Assembly (NCBI GenBank): GCA_965656385.1 | Contig: CBFHKM010000004.1 | Coordinates: 1 to 34,604, forward strand | DNA: 34,604 nt | Direction of reading: 5' to 3' | Origin: Oceaniferula sp. | GTDB lineage: Bacteria; Verrucomicrobiota; Verrucomicrobiia; Verrucomicrobiales; Akkermansiaceae | Shown here: one piece after another, positions 1 through 33,448 of the stretch | How the letters are laid out: every line of letters begins with the position of its first letter | Position numbering within the stretch: position 1 is the stretch's first letter | Position numbers and translations under genes: made by a program | The notes under the pieces: generated by a model | Database searches by the model: none | What the model saw: the letters and a program-made list of their open reading frames with translations, nothing else | What the model was told of the DNA's origin: nothing

Positions 1-157
1 TAGATAGGGTGCCTATATGGCTGTAGTGACAGATCTTTATGTGATCAAAAAATATTTGAGACAAGTATGTGACAAAAAGGCGTTTAATTAGTTGTAGATG
101 AGGCTAAAAAAGACACTAATCATAGCATCTTTTATATACCCATCACACTATACCATC

Positions 158-625
158 ATGAAAATAACTTCATCTCATTTTACAGTTTTATATGCCTTTA
201 AAAAAACCAAAATGCTTCGTGCTGGTTTTACCTTGTTGGAAATGGTCATCGTTCTTGGCATCATCGCTATGATTATGGGAGGGGCTATTTTTGTGATGAA
301 AAACATATCAGACAGTGGGGCTATTACGGTAGTTGATGGGGATTTTGCTTCCATTGATAATGCATTACAGGCCTACCGTAATAATGCAGGAAACTTTCCA
401 TCAGGGCAACAGGGGCTTGCGGCATTAGTAGATAAGCCGACTTCATCACCGCGACCACGCAGGTGGATTCAGATTATGGATCAGGTGCCCAAGGACCCAT
501 GGGGTAATGACTATGTTTACAAGTATCCAGGATCTAGGGAGCGTTCTCGTCCTGAATTGATTTGTTATGGCAAAGACGGCCTAGAAGGCACCGAGGATGA
601 TATGTCCAGTCAGGATCCGCGTTAA
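158..625 (+). CDS. gspG: Type II secretion major pseudopilin GspG
   Basis: Prepilin motif G|FTLLEMVIV, hydrophobic helix, and GspG C-terminal signature (P..DPWGNDYVY...G.DG.EGTEDD). Start uncertain (98, 158 or 212). Confidence 0.92.
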   Translation: MKITSSHFTVLYAFKKTKMLRAGFTLLEMVIVLGIIAMIMGGAIFVMKNISDSGAITVVDGDFASIDNALQAYRNNAGNFPSGQQGLAALVDKPTSSPRPRRWIQIMDQVPKDPWGNDYVYKYPGSRERSRPELICYGKDGLEGTEDDMSSQDPR

Positions 626-627
626 AT

Positions 628-1203
628 ATGCAGCTCGTTAAAAGACGCATACCAAATCGACGGCTAGGTGGTTTCACCTTGCTTGAGATTGTGTTTGTGC
701 TGTCGATGGTCGCTATCTTGGTGACGTGGATGACGATGAGTATTGCTACTGTTGAGTCTGAACAAAAATTACGTGAAGCAGCTGATCGTATTGAATTGTT
801 GGCCAAGCGTGGCCTGAACATCGCTGTTATACAACAGCGACCTTATGAGCTCATAATCACAGCAAAGACGGTTTCTCTGAAACCCAAACATGTGAGTATT
901 TCTGATGATTTCGAAGGCGTTGAAGTTAGCGATTTAGGTGATGATGAAAATAATAGAAGCTTTGATGACATCACGGCAAGTGAGGCTATGGCGGCTGATG
1001 TTTCATATGAAATTAAACGTTGGCGCTCAGATGAATGGCAGACCCTGGAGAAAAATCAGCAAATTGTGATTAGTCTCAGCCCACGTGGGTTAATTGAACC
1101 AATCTCGATTCGTTGTAGTATTGGAAAGAGTTGGATAACACATGAGTTACATCCGCTTACTGCCAGTATCCGTGATGAAGAGATGAGTATCGAAAAAGAA
1201 TAA
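628..1203 (+). CDS. gspH: Minor pseudopilin, GspH-like
   Basis: G|FTLLEIVFV N-methylation motif; directly follows gspG; identity assigned from gene order. Confidence 0.7.
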   Translation: MQLVKRRIPNRRLGGFTLLEIVFVLSMVAILVTWMTMSIATVESEQKLREAADRIELLAKRGLNIAVIQQRPYELIITAKTVSLKPKHVSISDDFEGVEVSDLGDDENNRSFDDITASEAMAADVSYEIKRWRSDEWQTLEKNQQIVISLSPRGLIEPISIRCSIGKSWITHELHPLTASIRDEEMSIEKE

Positions 1204-1205
1204 AG

Positions 1206-1667
1206 ATGAGAGGCTCAAGGCAACAGGTTCTAAGAAGGGCTAGCAAGGTGAATACCTGCAATGGCTTTGTGCTGCTTGAGATTATTATAGCGCTGGGGCT
1301 TTTTGCCGCGGTCGCTGTCTCCCTGGTCAAGGCGCTGCATATGACAAGTAAGACGGCGGTGATGATCCAAGATGGCATGCGTGTTGACAGAGTTTTACGA
1401 AGTGCAATGACAGAGGCTTTGGCTAATCCTTACCTTGAGGAGGGGGCTGAAAAAGTAAATATTACGGAGCTGACCGGTGATGATAGATCATTTTTCTCTG
1501 GTGAAATCGAAACGATTATTGAGCCTGTCGAGCTGGAAAATGAAGACGGGCAGTTGCTGCAAAACATGTACCGAATTGCGGTGGTTTTTTATTGGCGTGG
1601 TGGAGATGGTGAGTGGCAATCGCAAAGTGCTGAGACTTGGAGGTATGGCAGTTTATATAGGCCATAA
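1206..1667 (+). CDS. gspI: Minor pseudopilin, GspI-like
   Basis: G|FVLLEIIIAL motif; short pilin in third position of the cluster. Confidence 0.65.
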   Translation: MRGSRQQVLRRASKVNTCNGFVLLEIIIALGLFAAVAVSLVKALHMTSKTAVMIQDGMRVDRVLRSAMTEALANPYLEEGAEKVNITELTGDDRSFFSGEIETIIEPVELENEDGQLLQNMYRIAVVFYWRGGDGEWQSQSAETWRYGSLYRP

Positions 1668-1681
1668 ATATTTTCTAATCC

Positions 1682-2506
1682 ATGAATAGAAACACGCAGT
1701 ATCAGAAGCTAAAACGCAGCAGGGGGTTTACCTTGCTGGAGATAGTGATTGCGCTAGGTCTCATGGGTATGCTGGTGGGGATGATCTTTCGTGTCGCGAG
1801 GACCTCAGTGCAGTTGAGCCAAATGGTGGTGGAGCAGCAGCAGGTGACGATGGAAAGAAATGCATTTTTCAACCTACTAAAACAACAGTTTGAGAATATG
1901 CCCGGTAACGCAATCCTAAGACTGGAGAGTAATGATTCTCGCAATGGTAGTGTGTCTCGTTCGATATTTTCTCTGATTTTTCAAAATGTGCCTATGTCTT
2001 TTGATTGGGGGGAGACCCCAATGACGGCAGAGGCAGTAGAGCTGACCACCGTAGTCCAGAGAGACGGTTTTGTTGATGTTATTTTGAAGTTCTATGAAGA
2101 TGAAATTCTTCAGGAGTCAAATGCCAGGGGGGATAATGATTTAGAACCTTTTGCTGAAATTACCCTGCTCGAGAATTTATGGATGTGTGACTGTGAGGTG
2201 GTGGACGGTAATTCAATGGAGCAATTTACTGAGTGGGATAACAACAATAAGTTGCCCTTGCAGGTGAAGTTCTATTGCCGCTTTGAACCAACGTCTGATA
2301 TCATACAGCAGACATTCTGGGTGGTTCCAAAACAAAATCCTGAAGTGTTTTTTCGTGAGGTGATGCAGCAAAACGTGGTGCAGCCTCAGACGAATGCAGG
2401 GTTGGGAAATTCAAGTGGGGTGATTGAGCTTAATAACCAAAACAAACAAAAGCCAGTCACGCCAATATCTGAGGGTCGTAGTCAACAGCAGCCAGCAGGG
2501 AGGTAG
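1682..2506 (+). CDS. gspJ: Minor pseudopilin, GspJ-like
   Basis: RG|FTLLEIVIAL motif; size and position just before gspK. Confidence 0.7.
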   Translation: MNRNTQYQKLKRSRGFTLLEIVIALGLMGMLVGMIFRVARTSVQLSQMVVEQQQVTMERNAFFNLLKQQFENMPGNAILRLESNDSRNGSVSRSIFSLIFQNVPMSFDWGETPMTAEAVELTTVVQRDGFVDVILKFYEDEILQESNARGDNDLEPFAEITLLENLWMCDCEVVDGNSMEQFTEWDNNNKLPLQVKFYCRFEPTSDIIQQTFWVVPKQNPEVFFREVMQQNVVQPQTNAGLGNSSGVIELNNQNKQKPVTPISEGRSQQQPAGR

Positions 2507-2524
2507 GTAGTAAAATATGAGGAC

Positions 2525-3508
2525 ATGAATAATCGATTAAAACATGGGGCTTTGGCCGATCCACAGAACGTATGGAGTAGTGGTTATTCAACCAAGCCCC
2601 GCCATGGCAGCGCTCTCGTCGCTGTGTTTTGGATTATGGCAGTTTTATCGCTCGCTGTATTTGCCGCAGTAAAGGTTGTCTACCATGATGCTGATGCGTC
2701 TACTTCGCAAATTCATGGTTTTGACGCGATGCTTGCTGCTGAACGAGGAATAGCTGTTGCTGTGAATCCTGCGACTCAAAAAACTGAGCCTCTTTTGAGC
2801 TGGGATAATCCTGAGCAGGGAATTTCTTATCGTGCTCGCATTGAGGCAGAGGCGGCTAGATTCAATATTAATGTCATTCTCATGCGTAAGGATAAGCAAC
2901 TGCTCACCGATATTTTTACCGATTGGGGGATGGACCTGCTTGATGCCCAAATGCTCGTGGATAATCTAGTTGATTGGATTGATCCGGGGGATCTTACAGA
3001 GCTCAATGGTGCTGAGATTGACTGGTATGAGGAGCAAGGTCGCCCTAATCACCCCTTCAATAGACCTTTTTATAATCTCAATGAGATGCGCTTGGTAAAA
3101 GATATCAATCTACTGGAAGAGGTAAAGCCTGATTGGCAGAGCTGGTTCACCCTATGGAGTAATGGTAAATTAGATATTCATGAGGCTAGTGCAGAATTCA
3201 TTGCTGCCGCTGCAGAGGTGTCGATTGATGATGCGTCAAATTTGGTTGAATATGTGCTTGGGCCAGACCAAGAGAGGAATACTGAAGACGATCAGCGTTT
3301 TCAGAATTTGACTGAAGCGCTCAGTTTGATAGGAGTTTCTGACGTGCAGCAACAAGTAGTTTCGCCCAGATTGACCGTCAAAGATACTACGACACGTATT
3401 GTCAGTGACGGCAGAGCTGGCTCAGTGAAAAGAAGAGTCACCCTGATCTTAAAAAGCCGCACGGGTCAGCCAGTTATTTTAGACCGAAAGGAAGAGATCA
3501 TTCCTTAA
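2525..3508 (+). CDS. gspK: Type II secretion pseudopilin GspK
   Basis: G|SALVAVFW atypical prepilin lacking E5; RFNIN, DWID.GD...GAE..WY and PF..L.EMRLV motifs typical of GspK. Confidence 0.88.
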   Translation: MNNRLKHGALADPQNVWSSGYSTKPRHGSALVAVFWIMAVLSLAVFAAVKVVYHDADASTSQIHGFDAMLAAERGIAVAVNPATQKTEPLLSWDNPEQGISYRARIEAEAARFNINVILMRKDKQLLTDIFTDWGMDLLDAQMLVDNLVDWIDPGDLTELNGAEIDWYEEQGRPNHPFNRPFYNLNEMRLVKDINLLEEVKPDWQSWFTLWSNGKLDIHEASAEFIAAAAEVSIDDASNLVEYVLGPDQERNTEDDQRFQNLTEALSLIGVSDVQQQVVSPRLTVKDTTTRIVSDGRAGSVKRRVTLILKSRTGQPVILDRKEEIIP

Positions 3509-3536
3509 TTTTGGGTTATAGAAATCACGACATCAT

Positions 3537-4781
3537 ATGAGTAACAAAAAAAACACCCACTTATTGATACCTGGCCCAGAAGGTTGGGAAGTATGGACGG
3601 GTGGTGTTGATAGCTCATTCCAGCTGTCTCTAGAAAATGGACCGTTACTGGTTTCTGAGATAATGGATATACCATCTGCCAATCTTGTAATGGGTTTTCC
3701 AGTGCGTGAAGCACTGGCAGTTCCCTTTAAAGTCCAAACTAGCGATGACGCGATGTTTGATGACTTGGCATCAATGCATTTGGAAAAGTCAGGAATTCGG
3801 CCCGAGGAAAATGCGGGTAAGTTGACTGATTGTTTCTCTGTGGACCAAAGTGATGGTCAGTCAACCTTGTTAGCCGTTGTCTTATCAGCGCCAAAGCTCG
3901 GAGATTTGCCCTCACCTACGCCGAGTGCGTTTGATATTTCAGCACGTTTTTTTCCTATGGCTGAGAATGCCATTACGCTCTGGCGTGAGTTAGGCCGCTG
4001 GGTGTTTGCTGTGAGTAGTCAAGGCAAGCTGACGTATTTCCAATCTCTTTCCGGCGAGAGGCTCAACGGTGAAACCATTCGTGATGTTTACTTGGCCCTG
4101 ACTCAATTGGGGTTGCAGGGGGTGAATCTTGAGTTGAGTAAAGCTGTTGTGTGGATCTCGGGTTCACCATCAGACCCTAATAATGACGAGGTCAAAGCAT
4201 TTGGCAGCCAGTTGGGTGCCGAGGTGAGTGTGGCGACTAAACCAGCTCCGTTAATGCCTAGGTCCATCAGTAAACTTATTCCTGCTGATGCTCGTAGTGA
4301 AAAACGGGTGAAAGAAAAAAAGCAAAAGCGAAACATTCTGATTTCGGTCACCTTGGTTCTCTATCTCGGATTTGCTGCTTATTTTGGTTATCATTATGTA
4401 GAATTAACCCGTTCTATCGATGAGCAGGATAGGAAGATAAGAGACGTGAGGACCAATCACGCCGAAATCGCTCTATTTAACGCCGATTGGCAGCAGTTGG
4501 CGGCAGTGGTGGAAAGTCAGAATTGGCCGATTCAGTTACTCTACAGAACGGCCACGATTATTCCTCCATCACAAGATCTGCGGTTTAAGGTTTTTGAGGC
4601 TAGTCGCGAGCGTATCGTGATTCGTGGAGAATCTTCTGAGCTCAAGACGACCAGTAGTTATTCCGAGAAAATAAGGCGTGCGCTTAAAGATTATGAATGG
4701 TCGTTGCCCCCAGCGGAAGATGATCGCAAGACAGATCGTTGGAAATTTAATTACGAAGGTAAGTTGAAAGGGGGCATGTAA
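3537..4781 (+). CDS. gspL: GspL/PilM-PilN-like inner-membrane platform protein
   Basis: Cytoplasmic N-domain, single TM (NILISVTLVLYLGFAAYFGY), coiled coil, PilN-like C-domain; follows gspK. Confidence 0.6.
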   Translation: MSNKKNTHLLIPGPEGWEVWTGGVDSSFQLSLENGPLLVSEIMDIPSANLVMGFPVREALAVPFKVQTSDDAMFDDLASMHLEKSGIRPEENAGKLTDCFSVDQSDGQSTLLAVVLSAPKLGDLPSPTPSAFDISARFFPMAENAITLWRELGRWVFAVSSQGKLTYFQSLSGERLNGETIRDVYLALTQLGLQGVNLELSKAVVWISGSPSDPNNDEVKAFGSQLGAEVSVATKPAPLMPRSISKLIPADARSEKRVKEKKQKRNILISVTLVLYLGFAAYFGYHYVELTRSIDEQDRKIRDVRTNHAEIALFNADWQQLAAVVESQNWPIQLLYRTATIIPPSQDLRFKVFEASRERIVIRGESSELKTTSSYSEKIRRALKDYEWSLPPAEDDRKTDRWKFNYEGKLKGGM

Positions 4782-4783
4782 TC

Positions 4784-5338
4784 ATGAATTCACGAGAGAA
4801 AAATCTTATTTTGCTGCTTTTTGGTGTGGCTTTCATGGTCATCAATATTTTCTTGTTTACGTCTTTTAATGCCGCGATGCAAAAAAAGCGAAGTCAGCTG
4901 GATATTGGCGCCAAGAAACTGAACTTGATGGAGCAAGATTTAGCCATGTGGGAGTCGAAGGCTGACGACGTTGAATGGCTGGCAAATAACCAGCCTGTAA
5001 TAGGTGTGCATGCAAATATTGGAGCCGATCTTGCGGCATTTACTGAAGAGGCTGCTAATCGTCATGGCGTAGCTCTGTCGAAGCGGCCCAGTCCGCAGCG
5101 TGCCGACACAGAAGAAGCTGGTGCCTATCGCAGCGCACTGGTCAAGGTGACTGCCAATGCAATGGATGAGCAACTCTATAAGTGGCTCACTGATTTACAG
5201 AACCCAGATCTCAGTCGATCAGTCACCTTTGTGCGAATTAGCCCCCAACGTGACGATCCTACGCGTATTGATTGTGAACTTGAAATTACGCAATGGTTTC
5301 GTCCTGAAAGAGAGGATGAGCCAATTCTGAACGAGTAA
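4784..5338 (+). CDS. gspM: GspM/PilO-like platform protein
   Basis: MNSREKNLILLL N-terminus typical of GspM, TM, coiled coil, then a ferredoxin-like pattern (L.KWL.DLQ). Confidence 0.65.
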   Translation: MNSREKNLILLLFGVAFMVINIFLFTSFNAAMQKKRSQLDIGAKKLNLMEQDLAMWESKADDVEWLANNQPVIGVHANIGADLAAFTEEAANRHGVALSKRPSPQRADTEEAGAYRSALVKVTANAMDEQLYKWLTDLQNPDLSRSVTFVRISPQRDDPTRIDCELEITQWFRPEREDEPILNE

Positions 5339-5436
5339 GGGGGCGATTCTCTGATTTTTTGGAGTGATCTACACATTAAACAAACAATTTACTGACAATC
5401 AGGCGTTATTTCAGTTATACATTCTTCAGTCATTCC

Positions 5437-6006
5437 ATGCGTAACACATTATCTATCCTATGTCTTATGACAGTCCTTATGGGATTGATGTTTGTCGATG
5501 TGTCATTCGCGACGCCTCCTCGCAAACCAAGCGCATCCCAATTTAGTGTTTTAGTGTCACGATCGCCTTTCACCATTCGGGCGTCGTCGAGTGTATCCCG
5601 AGTAACATCTCCACTGGAGAAGGATTGGATGCTTGGTAGTATCCGCCCCAATACCGACGGTAAAGGTTGGGCAGTTACTTTGATTAACAAAAAAGATCGA
5701 AAAAATCGGGTGCGGTTTTTACCCGGATTTTCTGCAGACGGCTTTGAATTACTGGAGGTGGATCAAAATATGGCTGACCCAAAGGCTTCGAAAGTGCGGG
5801 TTCGTCAAGGATCTCAAACCGCTTGGATTTCATATGATGAGAACCTTATTAAGGTGAGGTCATCGGCATCAGGGCAGACCAAGTCCAGCCGAGTGAAACA
5901 GGCTGGTTCGAATAAGCCCAGGATTGTTCAGCCTGCAGCTCCCAGCAAAGGCGGTGTTGTTCGTCCAGTACGAAAGCGATACACTTCAAAAGAGAATAAG
6001 CCTTAA
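5437..6006 (+). CDS. Hypothetical membrane-anchored/secreted protein in GspC position
   Basis: N-terminal hydrophobic segment, RSPF motif then beta-rich domain, basic low-complexity tail; immediately upstream of the secretin. Confidence 0.5.
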   Translation: MRNTLSILCLMTVLMGLMFVDVSFATPPRKPSASQFSVLVSRSPFTIRASSSVSRVTSPLEKDWMLGSIRPNTDGKGWAVTLINKKDRKNRVRFLPGFSADGFELLEVDQNMADPKASKVRVRQGSQTAWISYDENLIKVRSSASGQTKSSRVKQAGSNKPRIVQPAAPSKGGVVRPVRKRYTSKENKP

Positions 6007-6029
6007 GCGATTTTAAACCAACGTTATCT

Positions 6030-8435
6030 ATGAAGATTTTTTTATCCATTCTTACCAGTATTGCCTTTTCGGTTACCGGGCATACTCAAGTTGCGGATGA
6101 TGGTGCTCCCAATGCAGTGGGTAAAGCTCAGCCCCAGGTGGGGAAACCTGAACAAGCATCGGCTAACAAAGGTATTCCAGTTGCCCCAGTGGCTCCAGTG
6201 GTGCCAGCCGGAGCGGCTCAGCCGATAGGGCAGCAAGGGCCTAAACCAGCATCAGCACGCAGGATCATCCCCAAAATAGATGCGAACAGTGGGCCTATGG
6301 CAATGGCCGCAAAAAAAGGAGAGATCATCGATGGAAGCAATTGGGATGATCAAGATGTCGCAGACGAGTATTCTAAATATACCGGCCAACGTGTGCTGCT
6401 TAGTTCCGCGACACAGGATCTTGAAATTAGGTTTTTTCAGCGTGGGCCTCTCACTAATGAGCAGGCGGCTAGTTTACTTGTCAAAGTCCTTGGCATGGAG
6501 GGTTATGTATTCGTTCCTAGTGGTGTCAATGAGGTGAAGCTGTTGCCAAAGGCACAGGGTAGTGGAGCCAACGGCCCTGCTGAACTTGAAGATATCATCG
6601 ATGATGCGAGTAAAATCCCGGAGGGGGACGATTACATCTCGTATTTCATGAAGTTGAATTTCATCAAGCCTGAGGAGGCAGTGAGGACATTCACTCAAAG
6701 TATCCATGGTTTGGGGCCTGGCGCGAAAATCGCGGCTGTGCCAAATGCTTCCGCCATACTCATTACGGGCAAATCAACTTTTGTTCGTAAGCTCATTAAT
6801 CAACAAAGATACATTGATGTTCCTACAGGCAATGTTGCTACCGCATGGGTGCAGCTAAAGTATGCTGATTCTGAGGATATTGCAGCAACGCTCAATGAAA
6901 TCATGAATGCTCAACAGCAGAGTGATACGACAGCGGGGGTGACCAAAGTAGGAGCGGCTAAGCCCAAAGTAGATGCACCAAGTCCATCAGTTGGTGTTCC
7001 CGTATCAGCAGCTGGTGAAGAGATTCCAGTTCAAATTGTTCCTGATCCACGACTGAATAAGATCTTCCTCATGGGGAGGCCTGTTGATATTGTCTTTGTT
7101 GAGGGGCTTGTGCGTCAGTTTGATGCCCCACCTAATCGAAATTCATTCTACAAGAGGAAGTTGCGCTTTATCATAGCCAGTGACTTTTTGCAAATAGCAG
7201 CTGATGCGCTGGAGGCACACAATGGCTCTGGTAATGAGACCCCTAACCGTCAGGGCAACGCCCGTCAAAACCAGTCACGTAACCAGTCTGGTCGGTCGTC
7301 CAATGGTAGTGATCGAGGTAATTCACGCACCGGTAATGTTGAGTCGGTCGAGGAATTTAATGTTAGTGATGTGCCCGAGTCTATTGTGGTTGGTAAAACT
7401 TTCATTGTTGCTGATAACTTGGCAAACAGCATCTTGGTTCAAGGAACTCCAGAAAGTGTGCGTATTGTGACTGAACTGGTTGACAAACTGGATGGGCGAC
7501 CTCAACAGGTCATGATTTCTACTGTATTTGGCGAAGCGTCGCTAGGCAACGGCACGGACATTGGTGTAAGTCTCGGGGCTATTGCACGAGGGGGAGATAG
7601 AGATGCCGCAGGCTCTACTGGTGGCGGTGGACCCTTGCCTGCATTCGCAGAGTTGCTCTCGAACGTGGGTTTAAATACGGCGGTGGCTGATGACTTTGCT
7701 AGAGGCTTGAATATCTATGGTAGAATCAATGATTTCACTGGCGTGATTCGAGCCCTTGAAAGTAGTTCAGACTTTAAAATTTTATCAAGGCCAACGGTTT
7801 ACACGGCTAACAATCGAAAAGCTGTAATCTCTTCGGGAAGTAGTATCGCTGTTCCGACCAATCAATTTAATAGTGGAACGACAGGGCAAAGCACAAACAT
7901 TGAATATAGAGATGTGTTGCTTCGGTTTGAGGTAGTTCCACTCATTAATTCGGAAGATGAGGTGACACTGCGTATTTCGCTGATCAATGATACAGTCGGT
8001 GAGGATCAGACGATTGGAGACCTCACAGTGCCGACTATTGGCACGGAGACCGTGACAACGACGGTGACGGTGAAAAATAACACTACTGTAGTTATCGGGG
8101 GCTTGGTTACCGAGGTTGAGCGTAATTCTAAGAGTGGTGTCCCTGTGTTAAGTAGAATCCCAGGTATTGGGAGGCTCTTTAGTCGAACTCGAAAAAGTGT
8201 AGAGCGCCGTGAGCTTTTGGTTTTCATTCAGCCCAAGATTGTTGGTGGTCATACCAGCCAACTAGATGTCCAAGAAGATATGGAGCGGCGTTACGATGTT
8301 GCCCCAGCGGCGCGAGAGTTTGCCGATGGTGTGCTTCCGCCCAAACCTGTTGAAAGAAAGGATTCAAAATCGCCCAAAAAGTCGATTCCGTCGGCATCTA
8401 AACGCCCAGACATTAAGTATCCTACAAGAAGGTAA
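6030..8435 (+). CDS. gspD: Type II secretion secretin GspD
   Basis: Signal peptide, repeated N-domains (LKYADSEDIAATL, DPRLNKIFLMG) and secretin domain (QVMISTV, ILSRPTVYTANNRKAVI, GVPVLSRIPGIGRLF, ELLVFIQPKIV). Confidence 0.93.
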   Translation: MKIFLSILTSIAFSVTGHTQVADDGAPNAVGKAQPQVGKPEQASANKGIPVAPVAPVVPAGAAQPIGQQGPKPASARRIIPKIDANSGPMAMAAKKGEIIDGSNWDDQDVADEYSKYTGQRVLLSSATQDLEIRFFQRGPLTNEQAASLLVKVLGMEGYVFVPSGVNEVKLLPKAQGSGANGPAELEDIIDDASKIPEGDDYISYFMKLNFIKPEEAVRTFTQSIHGLGPGAKIAAVPNASAILITGKSTFVRKLINQQRYIDVPTGNVATAWVQLKYADSEDIAATLNEIMNAQQQSDTTAGVTKVGAAKPKVDAPSPSVGVPVSAAGEEIPVQIVPDPRLNKIFLMGRPVDIVFVEGLVRQFDAPPNRNSFYKRKLRFIIASDFLQIAADALEAHNGSGNETPNRQGNARQNQSRNQSGRSSNGSDRGNSRTGNVESVEEFNVSDVPESIVVGKTFIVADNLANSILVQGTPESVRIVTELVDKLDGRPQQVMISTVFGEASLGNGTDIGVSLGAIARGGDRDAAGSTGGGGPLPAFAELLSNVGLNTAVADDFARGLNIYGRINDFTGVIRALESSSDFKILSRPTVYTANNRKAVISSGSSIAVPTNQFNSGTTGQSTNIEYRDVLLRFEVVPLINSEDEVTLRISLINDTVGEDQTIGDLTVPTIGTETVTTTVTVKNNTTVVIGGLVTEVERNSKSGVPVLSRIPGIGRLFSRTRKSVERRELLVFIQPKIVGGHTSQLDVQEDMERRYDVAPAAREFADGVLPPKPVERKDSKSPKKSIPSASKRPDIKYPTRR

Positions 8436-32203: not shown

Positions 32204-32806
32204 ATGATTGAAGAGAAAAGCACATCAGCAAGCTTGCTGGTTCAAGCTCATGAGTTGGTTGCTGGGGTTTTGCTGGCAGGCGATACGGCAGTGGACGCAA
32301 CAATAGGTAATGGGCATGACACCCTGTTTTTAACCAGATGTGTTGGCGTTTCTGGTATGGTCTATGGCTTTGATGTTCAGCAGGCAGCTTTGATTAACTC
32401 GCGTGAGAGACTTGAAGCGGACAAGGTAGATGGTGGTTGTTATCAGCTGATCTGTGAGAGCCATGCTGATATGGAGCATTATGTGGTAGGCCCGGCAAAG
32501 GCGGTGATGTTTAATCTCGGCTATTTGCCGGGTGGGGATAAGACGAAGATTACGCATGCAGATTCAACTTCAGCTGCATTATTGGCGGCGGCAGGTTTAA
32601 TAGCCTGTGGCGGGATGTTAACGGTGATGTGCTATCCGGGTCACGATGGTGGTGATGACGAGGCACGCATGGTGACTGAATTCATCAATGAGCTTGATGG
32701 TGAGCAATGGGTGAAGGTGCGTTACAACCGCGTGCAGGCAAAGCACTGGTCTCCTTATCTCTGGACTTTGAGACGAAGATCCTCAGATGAAAGTTCGGCT
32801 GGGTGA
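32204..32806 (+). CDS. mnmM: Class I SAM methyltransferase, YtqB/MnmM family
   Basis: VDATIGNGHDT, VYGFDVQ..A, SHA, FNLGYLPGGDK, CYPGHDGG.DE. Confidence 0.8.
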   Translation: MIEEKSTSASLLVQAHELVAGVLLAGDTAVDATIGNGHDTLFLTRCVGVSGMVYGFDVQQAALINSRERLEADKVDGGCYQLICESHADMEHYVVGPAKAVMFNLGYLPGGDKTKITHADSTSAALLAAAGLIACGGMLTVMCYPGHDGGDDEARMVTEFINELDGEQWVKVRYNRVQAKHWSPYLWTLRRRSSDESSAG

Positions 32807-32839
32807 AAAAACGGCCAGACCTCGATGGAGGGCTGGCCG
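32806..32839 (-). terminator. Rho-independent terminator for the minus-strand selenoprotein candidate
   Basis: CGGCCAG..CTC-loop-GAG..CTGGCCG hairpin followed on the minus strand by TTTTTT; begins 24 nt after the TAG at 32864-32866. Confidence 0.75.
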
Positions 32840-32863
32840 CAAATGATTAAGTAAATAGTTTAT

Positions 32864-33448
32864 CTAGAAAGGTTTGCCCACAAGAGGCCTGCTTGCTTGG
32901 ATATTCATTTTGAATGGAGCAATTGCTTTGGCAACACTGTCTTGGTCGAGATCACCAGCCTTGTTAAGGTGGAGGGTGATACCTCGGTTGACGTAAGCTG
33001 CTGCAATATTGTCAAGTTGTTCTAAAGCCACACGGGCTTTTTCGTTGGTGTCCGCTCATCCGGTTCCAGTAACAGCCAACACATAGCCAGCTTCAGGAAT
33101 CACGATTTCGTCTTTCTTGAACGAGACAAGTTTTAGCGACTTTCTATTCAGTGACTGCTCAACTTTGGCTTTGTCGAGATCCTGCCCGTCCTTCATGACG
33201 ACAGTAGCTCGCAAACCTGAAAGTAGAATTTTGCTGACGCCACTTTGTGTTTTCAGAGCCAAACTGGCTCTGCTGGAAACGCCTCATCCCTTGCCGCTGA
33301 CTTGGACAAGGTAGACGCTTGCGGTGTTGGTAATGGCATCGGCCGCTGCTGCCTCGGCAACATTGGCATGCACAGTAGCCAACATGGGTAGCGCCGCTAA
33401 CCCGAGAGCAGCAGCACATGCAGTTGTTTTTCGTATGCTAGTTTTCAT
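32864..33448 (-). CDS. Putative secreted selenoprotein with two HMA-like repeats (Sec at codons 55 and 131), 194 aa
   Basis: One frame from ATG 33448 to TAG 32864, broken only by TGA at 33284-33286 and 33056-33058. Contexts YLVQVSGKG-U-GVS and YVLAVTGTG-U-ADT; signal peptide; hairpin 3' of each TGA; terminator after the TAG. Confidence 0.8.
33024..33040 (-). promoter_or_regulatory. SECIS-like hairpin 2
   Basis: AAAGCC-CGUGU-GGCUUU; stem starts after a 15-nt spacer following UGA2. Confidence 0.68.
33254..33272 (-). promoter_or_regulatory. SECIS-like hairpin 1
   Basis: CAGAGCC-AGUUU-GGCUCUG; stem starts after an 11-nt spacer following UGA1; GU in the apical loop. Confidence 0.75.

Follow-up and report, generated by a model that had tools for sequence, protein, structure and literature searches.

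What is encoded on the minus strand near the end of the 34,604-nt stretch of Oceaniferula sp. DNA analysed here (hereafter the window), where the predicted open reading frames break up into fragments? A preliminary description had proposed that these fragments belong to a single gene for a secreted protein with tandem HMA-like repeats, with two in-frame UGA codons read as selenocysteine (Sec). Re-translation matched this read-through exactly, including both TGAs in their GGA-TGA-G context, and the list of table-11 ORFs (at least 80 aa) does not contain the gene as a whole. The alignment of the two repeats, in which the TGAs had been placed at equivalent positions, is weak, at 25% across 57 aa (pairwise E 5e-4), but brings the TGAs into register. 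The presence of one gene whose codons 55 and 131 are TGA is confirmed (Table 1); split by annotation software at its two UGAs, it very likely codes for a single exported protein made of two HMA domains. From motifs on the ORF list, we take the upstream flanking gene to be a RidA-like ORF and the convergent one to encode a methyltransferase-like protein, and positions 98-8435 of the window to hold an ordinary type II secretion-like cluster (pilin-type G/H/I/J/K proteins and a secretin). The terminator-like hairpin behind the gene was absent from the output of a stricter terminator scan, a promoter scan gave two sites versus 1.2 expected by chance, and an Rfam search returned no matches at E<=1.

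Table 1. Features of the two-UGA gene and its surroundings, in window coordinates.
Feature	Position	Strand	Remarks
Full coding sequence, 194 aa with both TGAs as Sec	32864..33448	(-)	194 codons; start ATG at 33448; terminal TAG 32866-32864
Predicted signal peptide, residues ~1-28	33365..33448	(-)	basic N-terminus, hydrophobic core, V-H-A cleavage-type motif; by eye
Predicted HMA-fold domain 1, residues ~42-116	33101..33325	(-)	loop G-x-G-U-G
TGA codon 55, putative Sec	33286-33284	(-)	context GGA-TGA-G
bSECIS-type hairpin 1	33254..33272	(-)	+12..+30 after UGA, 8-bp stem, G-U-U loop, -11.6 kcal/mol
Ser77-Gly78, beta2-beta3 turn	33215..33220	(-)	in 66/66 members
Predicted HMA-fold domain 2, residues ~120-188	32885..33091	(-)	loop G-x-G-U-A-x-T-N
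TGA codon 131, putative Sec	33058-33056	(-)	context GGA-TGA-G; gap-free alignment to first Cys of CopA GMTCAAC
bSECIS-type hairpin 2	33024..33040	(-)	+16..+32, 6-bp stem, C-G-U-G-U loop, -5.2 kcal/mol
Terminator-like hairpin, then U run	32806..32840	(-)	just past stop; z -5.1, 0/200 shuffles fold equally well

The gene matched 74 of 201 genomes in a survey of the bacterial family Akkermansiaceae, and 72 of these carry a full-length copy with exactly two TGAs, the remaining two being a frameshift-split copy (one TGA per piece) and a copy ended by a contig edge. All 72 full-length genomic copies have TGA, never TGG, at both sites. Chance nonsense mutations, judged unlikely in the preliminary description, do not account for a full-length two-TGA gene kept in so many genomes, and coding conservation holds on both sides of both TGAs, in the same 72 of 74 genomes as well as in the homolog alignment. 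In four genera the gene belongs to the near-core set (20/22, 23/23, 18/22, and 8/9), the closest named records are from Akkermansiaceae including Oceaniferula, Roseibacillus, and Rubritalea, and its cultured carriers include Oceaniferula spumae, Roseibacillus persicicus, and Rubritalea spongiae. An order-wide draw recovered the two-TGA gene in 17 of 301 genomes, six of the 17 coming from three other families, together with three further matches without internal stop, two of which were fetched and are ordinary single CxxC HMA proteins. The gene family was absent from a phylum-wide draw of 400 other genomes, in which the single other match is a P-type ATPase. One member (L070:3881-4456) lies on a contig titled Thermodesulfobacteriota, yet its sequence and neighbours are very like the Rubritalea copies; the mismatch is probably a label or binning issue.

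The machinery on which the proposed Sec reading depends is in place: the source genome (G000) encodes selA, selB, selD, and tRNA-Sec, each over its curated cut-off, and selD itself contains a TGA. Within the Akkermansiaceae survey, all 74 gene-bearing genomes have a selA match (73 over cut-off), the gene is found in none of the 101 genomes without one, and 26 selA-matching genomes lack the gene; because these genomes are kin from five genera, this co-occurrence serves as a consistency check and not as a statistic. UGA is otherwise a normal stop in G000, which encodes RF2, ends 320 of 1427 long ORFs with TGA, has 1.4% TGG among its codons, and carries tRNA-Sec as its sole tRNA with a UCA anticodon. 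These features speak against a code in which UGA means Trp (code 4), as is reported for two Verrucomicrobiota ciliate endosymbionts in the accessible text of a recent study (PMC13462651). That there would be no selenoprotein here, with either Trp at the UGAs or a pseudogene, draws on the database, where most full-length matches have W at both sites: a search of cluster representatives gave 35 matches, and among the 16 longest, 14 show W at the aligned sites, whereas P0026 has Cys at both and P0017 has Cys at site 2. Yet P0057 is identical to the frame of locus L056 if each TGA is translated as W, even a TGA that precedes the start, and the ten database matches that we looked up (nine of them W forms) lie on contigs of only 0.7-3.3 kb; because of this identity and of the short contigs, the W forms are best explained as gene calls with TGA translated as W. 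With TGA, never TGG, in the 72 full-length copies, we consider both versions of this alternative ruled out for practical purposes, leaving them a vanishingly small probability.

The preliminary description had looked to homologs with TGA or Cys at residues 55 and 131, and Cys does occur there in distant relatives. It is aligned to the UGA sites in P0026, P0042-44, and P0061; identity to the window protein is 28-31% for the Cys forms (P0026, P0039-44, P0061). Both sites are TGC in the single Cys-form locus recovered (L078), which comes from a high-GC organism. In a tree of 33 rows, which is unrooted and does not show the direction of change, four double-Cys forms occupy one long separate branch (100/100), and P0017 is placed inside the Sec forms.

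An adjacent 3' SECIS element had been expected for each UGA, and a covarying hairpin of the bSECIS type indeed follows each. In the accessible part of a 2026 selenoprotein catalogue, the bSECIS model is given a loop of 3-9 nt with G in its first two positions at 16-37 nt from the UGA, a stem of at least 4 bp, and an energy threshold of <= -7.5 kcal/mol (PMC13188914). The loops at our two sites lie at 19 nt (hairpin 1) and 21 nt (hairpin 2) from the UGA, each contains G, and both hairpins agree with the loop, distance, and stem values of the model. By our own calculation over the first 48 nt, the energies are -13.4 kcal/mol for site 1 and -6.9 for site 2, so that hairpin 2 is weak against the published -7.5. 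On energy alone neither region folds better than its shuffles (z -1.1 for site 1, +1.6 for site 2). In 39 sequences (29 of 30 survey loci, L048 having been dropped for a mis-picked start, and 10 of 24 named-record loci), the four core stem pairs are intact in 153 of 156 cells for hairpin 1 and 156 of 156 for hairpin 2, versus 10-83 and 39-117 cells, respectively, when the same pairing is slid along the alignment. Two-sided changes are seen in the stems (A-U/G-C, 18/17 and 18/20; C-G/U-A), and the four most conserved synonymous third positions among 60 codon columns scored all lie inside the two hairpins. In a larger set of 66 members (29 survey loci and 37 of 40 further loci, after one frameshifted, one truncated, and one mis-extracted sequence were dropped), a relaxed test found a G-loop hairpin in 63 and 64 of the 66 at the two sites, versus 1077 of 8658 control codon positions (12.4%). 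The conserved K-A-R-V-A-L peptide encoded here largely reflects this RNA constraint and is therefore not to be read as a catalytic motif. Machinery, TGA conservation, hairpins, and Cys homologs all agree, and on such sequence evidence it is very probable that both UGAs would be read as Sec, by SelB-dependent insertion.

Which kind of protein carries these residues? The layout of the leader is common to the homologs, all inspected members starting in a signal-like manner, and a crude lipobox pattern fits 8 of 66 members; judging from these sequences, export is highly probable. AlphaFold2 returned two beta-alpha-beta-beta-alpha-beta domains (mean pLDDT 82, pTM 0.71; residues 1-39 unconfident, pLDDT <50), and the model of a Cys form has the same two-domain fold. 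Structurally, the ZntA N-domain matches best (70 residues at an rmsd of 1.8 A, Z 10.1), with Ccc2a, ATP7B, and CsoZ next in rank; domain 1 matched the Pikm-1 HMA (Z 8.6), and in the searches with two models every match listed aligned to a single domain at a time. In the alignment of the family profile with the tandem HMA of Bacillus subtilis CopA (E 2.9e-10), U131 falls on the first Cys. PF00403 gave no match for the window protein (P0001) and weak matches for 13 of 27 homologs, and an Atlas search with a Cys form gave only leads below 0.9, to HMA-labelled clusters. Based on these models and matches, two HMA domains of beta-alpha-beta-beta-alpha-beta topology are very likely, in line with the fold and the first-Cys position that had been proposed for the Sec residues. 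However, the description had placed the UGAs in the complete HMA motif V-x-G-M-x-C-x-x-C, and only half of this stands: the first-Cys placement holds, whereas neither Cys nor Sec is found at +3 in any of the 66 members, in either domain, so that there is no CxxC two-ligand site. The second HMA Cys being absent from both domains, the protein is not a selenium version of that site. The consensus of the 66 members reads G-x-G-U-G at site 1 and G-x-[GT]-U-[AS]-x-T-N at site 2, where Thr occupies +3 in 55/66 (U-x-x-T) and Asn +4 in 52/66; the Sec residues of the two domains are spaced by 76-78 residues, and in 60/66 members the mature part is without any other Cys. From HMA topology, the invariant Ser77-Gly78 turn presumably lies beside the first Sec.

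No model of NCBIfam 20.0 reaches its cut-off with the window protein, which bears out the impression that it does not belong to a recognised named family. The UxxU metal-binding (seleno)protein NF041115 is likewise of HMA type with two Sec, and all 27 members give a weak match to it (best E 6.6e-7); yet it is a single domain of 74 positions with both Sec in one UxxU, whereas the window protein has a leader and two domains with one Sec each. Membership was rejected, the window protein having no UxxU and scoring 16 bits versus a cut-off of 95. With MerP, CopZ, Atx1, and the CopA tandem HMA (PF00403; 1p6t, 2rml, 1mwz) it has in common the fold, the loop position, and the first ligand, and with MerP also the predicted export, but it lacks the second Cys, has Sec for Cys, and stands alone without mer or cop partners; nor does its predicted domain arrangement superpose on the CopA tandem (rmsd 14.6 A). 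As a stand-alone gene product below the NCBIfam cut-offs, it was not assigned to MerP either. Sec in a heavy-metal context is likewise found in the MerT/CopZ fusion-like (NF045683), cation-transporting ATPase (UxxC), and mercuric transport (C/SxxU) selenoproteins, but these are membrane transporters, whereas the window protein has no membrane domain beyond its leader. Another double selenoprotein, the metal-binding MbdU (NF045648), is said to go back to Haft and Tolstoy in 2025. It too has two Sec and a proposed metal-binding role, but its motif is listed as CU in the accessible part of the catalogue (PMC13188914), and the 27 members did not match it at E<=0.1 among the matches listed. That catalogue of 2026 comprises 119 selenoprotein families, HMA-related ones included, and an exported HMA tandem with one Sec per domain is absent from its Table 1 (PMC13188914). 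No description of a double-Sec tandem-HMA family was found in the literature covered, with the BSepDB family table and Haft and Tolstoy 2025 outside this scope; the accessible portions of the Haft and Gwadz preprint, BSepDB, deep-Sep, and SelCysML gave no mention of HMA or Verrucomicrobia, and the corresponding text of the Actinomarina preprint mentions neither HMA nor heavy metal. The double-Sec tandem-HMA family is real and apparently uncatalogued, a variant among HMA selenoproteins whose function we infer.

Further candidate selenoproteins were observed in the same genome. A secreted single-domain MerP/CopZ-like paralog (G000:C56:6490-6864 (+); L076:1483-1821) carries G-M-T-U-G-V-G-C (UxxxC) and a SECIS-like hairpin; it stays below all NCBIfam cut-offs, and 58 of 201 genomes contain a match, usually with a single TGA and in some cases as adjacent pairs. 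A candidate uncatalogued selenoprotein of 229 aa with a leader and G-G-U-Q (G000:C5:17258-17944 (-); L133:1259-1945) has a G-U-U-loop hairpin after its TGA, lies in a gene run that ends at selB, and has no NCBIfam match. Of 101 family genomes, 92 contain a homolog of it; among ten loci, five have an aligned TGA and the same hairpin, one has neither TGA nor Cys, and four were not parsed. Two more genes with in-frame TGA encode an MsrA with a leader (G000:C140:3159-4010 (+)), whose TGA occupies the catalytic position, and a DsbD-like protein (G000:C32:13944-16259 (-)), whose thioredoxin domain has U-x-x-C; the two likely form an exported seleno-redox chain. Finally, a small contig (G000:C198:764-2950) holds an array of 12 tRNAs with the eukaryote-type anticodons AGC, AAG, AAT, AAC, AGG, and AGA, which may stem from a contaminant or be a phage/mobile tRNA array.

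What, then, might two lone Sec residues do on an exported HMA tandem? Our preferred reading, of which we are about half convinced, is a periplasmic soft-metal binder or hand-over protein working with lone selenolates. The single exposed selenolate of each domain is predicted to bind Cu+, Ag+, or Hg2+/CH3Hg+ outside the cytoplasmic membrane. Since the first ligand of CxxC alone appears to be retained, in a glycine-rich loop where helix 1 begins, the metal would be held by one selenolate and a second ligand from elsewhere, be it the other domain, a second copy of the protein, a small thiol, or the UxxxC single-HMA selenoprotein of the same genome, which could supply the partner site. In this role, the protein would buffer the metal in the periplasm or hand it over, outside any mer operon. 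According to work on Atx1/Ccc2, as reportedly described, the first, exposed Cys is the ligand that bridges during metal transfer, and selenolate binds soft metals strongly. The metal role is favoured by the HMA ancestry, by the retained, exposed first ligand together with this affinity, by the occurrence of the secreted MerP/CopZ-like paralog in the same genomes, and by the one Cys-form locus (L078:1089-2351 (-) and 2574-3173 (+)), in which the Cys form lies divergently beside what we take, from its motif, to be a CobW/COG0523-like GTPase; an adjoining ORF at this one locus is presumably an FAD-dependent oxidoreductase-like one, again judging from its motif. More tentatively, the two selenolates may meet, within a chain or in a dimer, as an Se-M-Se clamp or as a diselenide switch, which we regard as unlikely.

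Against the metal role stand the missing second Cys at +3 and the U-x-x-T of site 2, a pattern listed for redox selenoproteins; moreover, having a fold in common does not establish a function. Neighbours are conserved only within genera, and no conserved metal-resistance neighbour was found among the 94 loci examined; the gene stands alone, in G000 (92% complete) MerT gave no match and nothing reached the MerA cut-off, and no tie to mercury resistance emerged. Resistance genes are expected to be patchy in distribution, and the near-core distribution therefore counts against metal resistance. Possible metal links are confined to what we take to be a permease with a C-E-C motif at six loci (L060:2497-3546 (-), L039, L041, L042, L047, L072) and an azurin-like gene at seven (e.g., L100:5120-5611 (+)), both genus-limited, and presumably a flavin disulfide reductase-like neighbour at one locus (L159:661-2142 (-)). 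The main rival, which seems to us somewhat unlikely, is a periplasmic redox selenoprotein on an HMA scaffold, whose lone Sec would be oxidised by peroxide, sulfane sulfur, a partner disulfide, or into a diselenide, and re-reduced by the DsbD-like selenoprotein. The prevalent Thr at +3 and Asn at +4 of site 2 suit it, as the accessible part of the catalogue lists UxxT/UxxS motifs for GPX-like, OsmC-like, and arsenate-reductase selenoproteins (PMC13188914), and so do the near-core status of the gene and the leader-bearing MsrA and DsbD-like protein, each with an in-frame TGA, of the same genome. Cys is found at +4 of site 2 in P0009, P0015, and P0016, and in place of Ser77 in two Cys-form homologs, as a resolving residue would be; these extra Cys are equally possible as metal ligands, however, the closest relatives in sequence and fold are all metal-binding HMA domains, and no redox partner is a conserved neighbour among the 94 loci. 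A carrier or store of selenium or sulfur, in which the lone Sec would carry a persulfide or perselenide or bank selenium outside the cell, appears quite improbable: a single chalcogen residue in a Gly-rich loop where a helix begins may recall single-Cys sulfur carriers, and the Verrucomicrobiales copies almost always have Sec, but Cys-only homologs exist, no Se-metabolism gene is a conserved neighbour (94 loci), and two Sec per 194 aa make a poor store.

Whichever function applies, this is a Sec family that is present in public protein sets only as fragments or as Trp-misread proteins, and marine Akkermansiaceae keep a set of exported selenoproteins. If true, an Se-M-Se clamp or diselenide switch would join two half-HMA sites into an extracytoplasmic metal site of a new kind, and marine Verrucomicrobiales would possess a near-core trait for capturing Cu, Ag, or Hg/methylmercury at seawater concentrations. 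An HMA domain that keeps the first ligand only, as Sec, offers a natural test of why selenium is used over sulfur and of how a one-ligand HMA works, for which the natural Cys forms provide a ready control.
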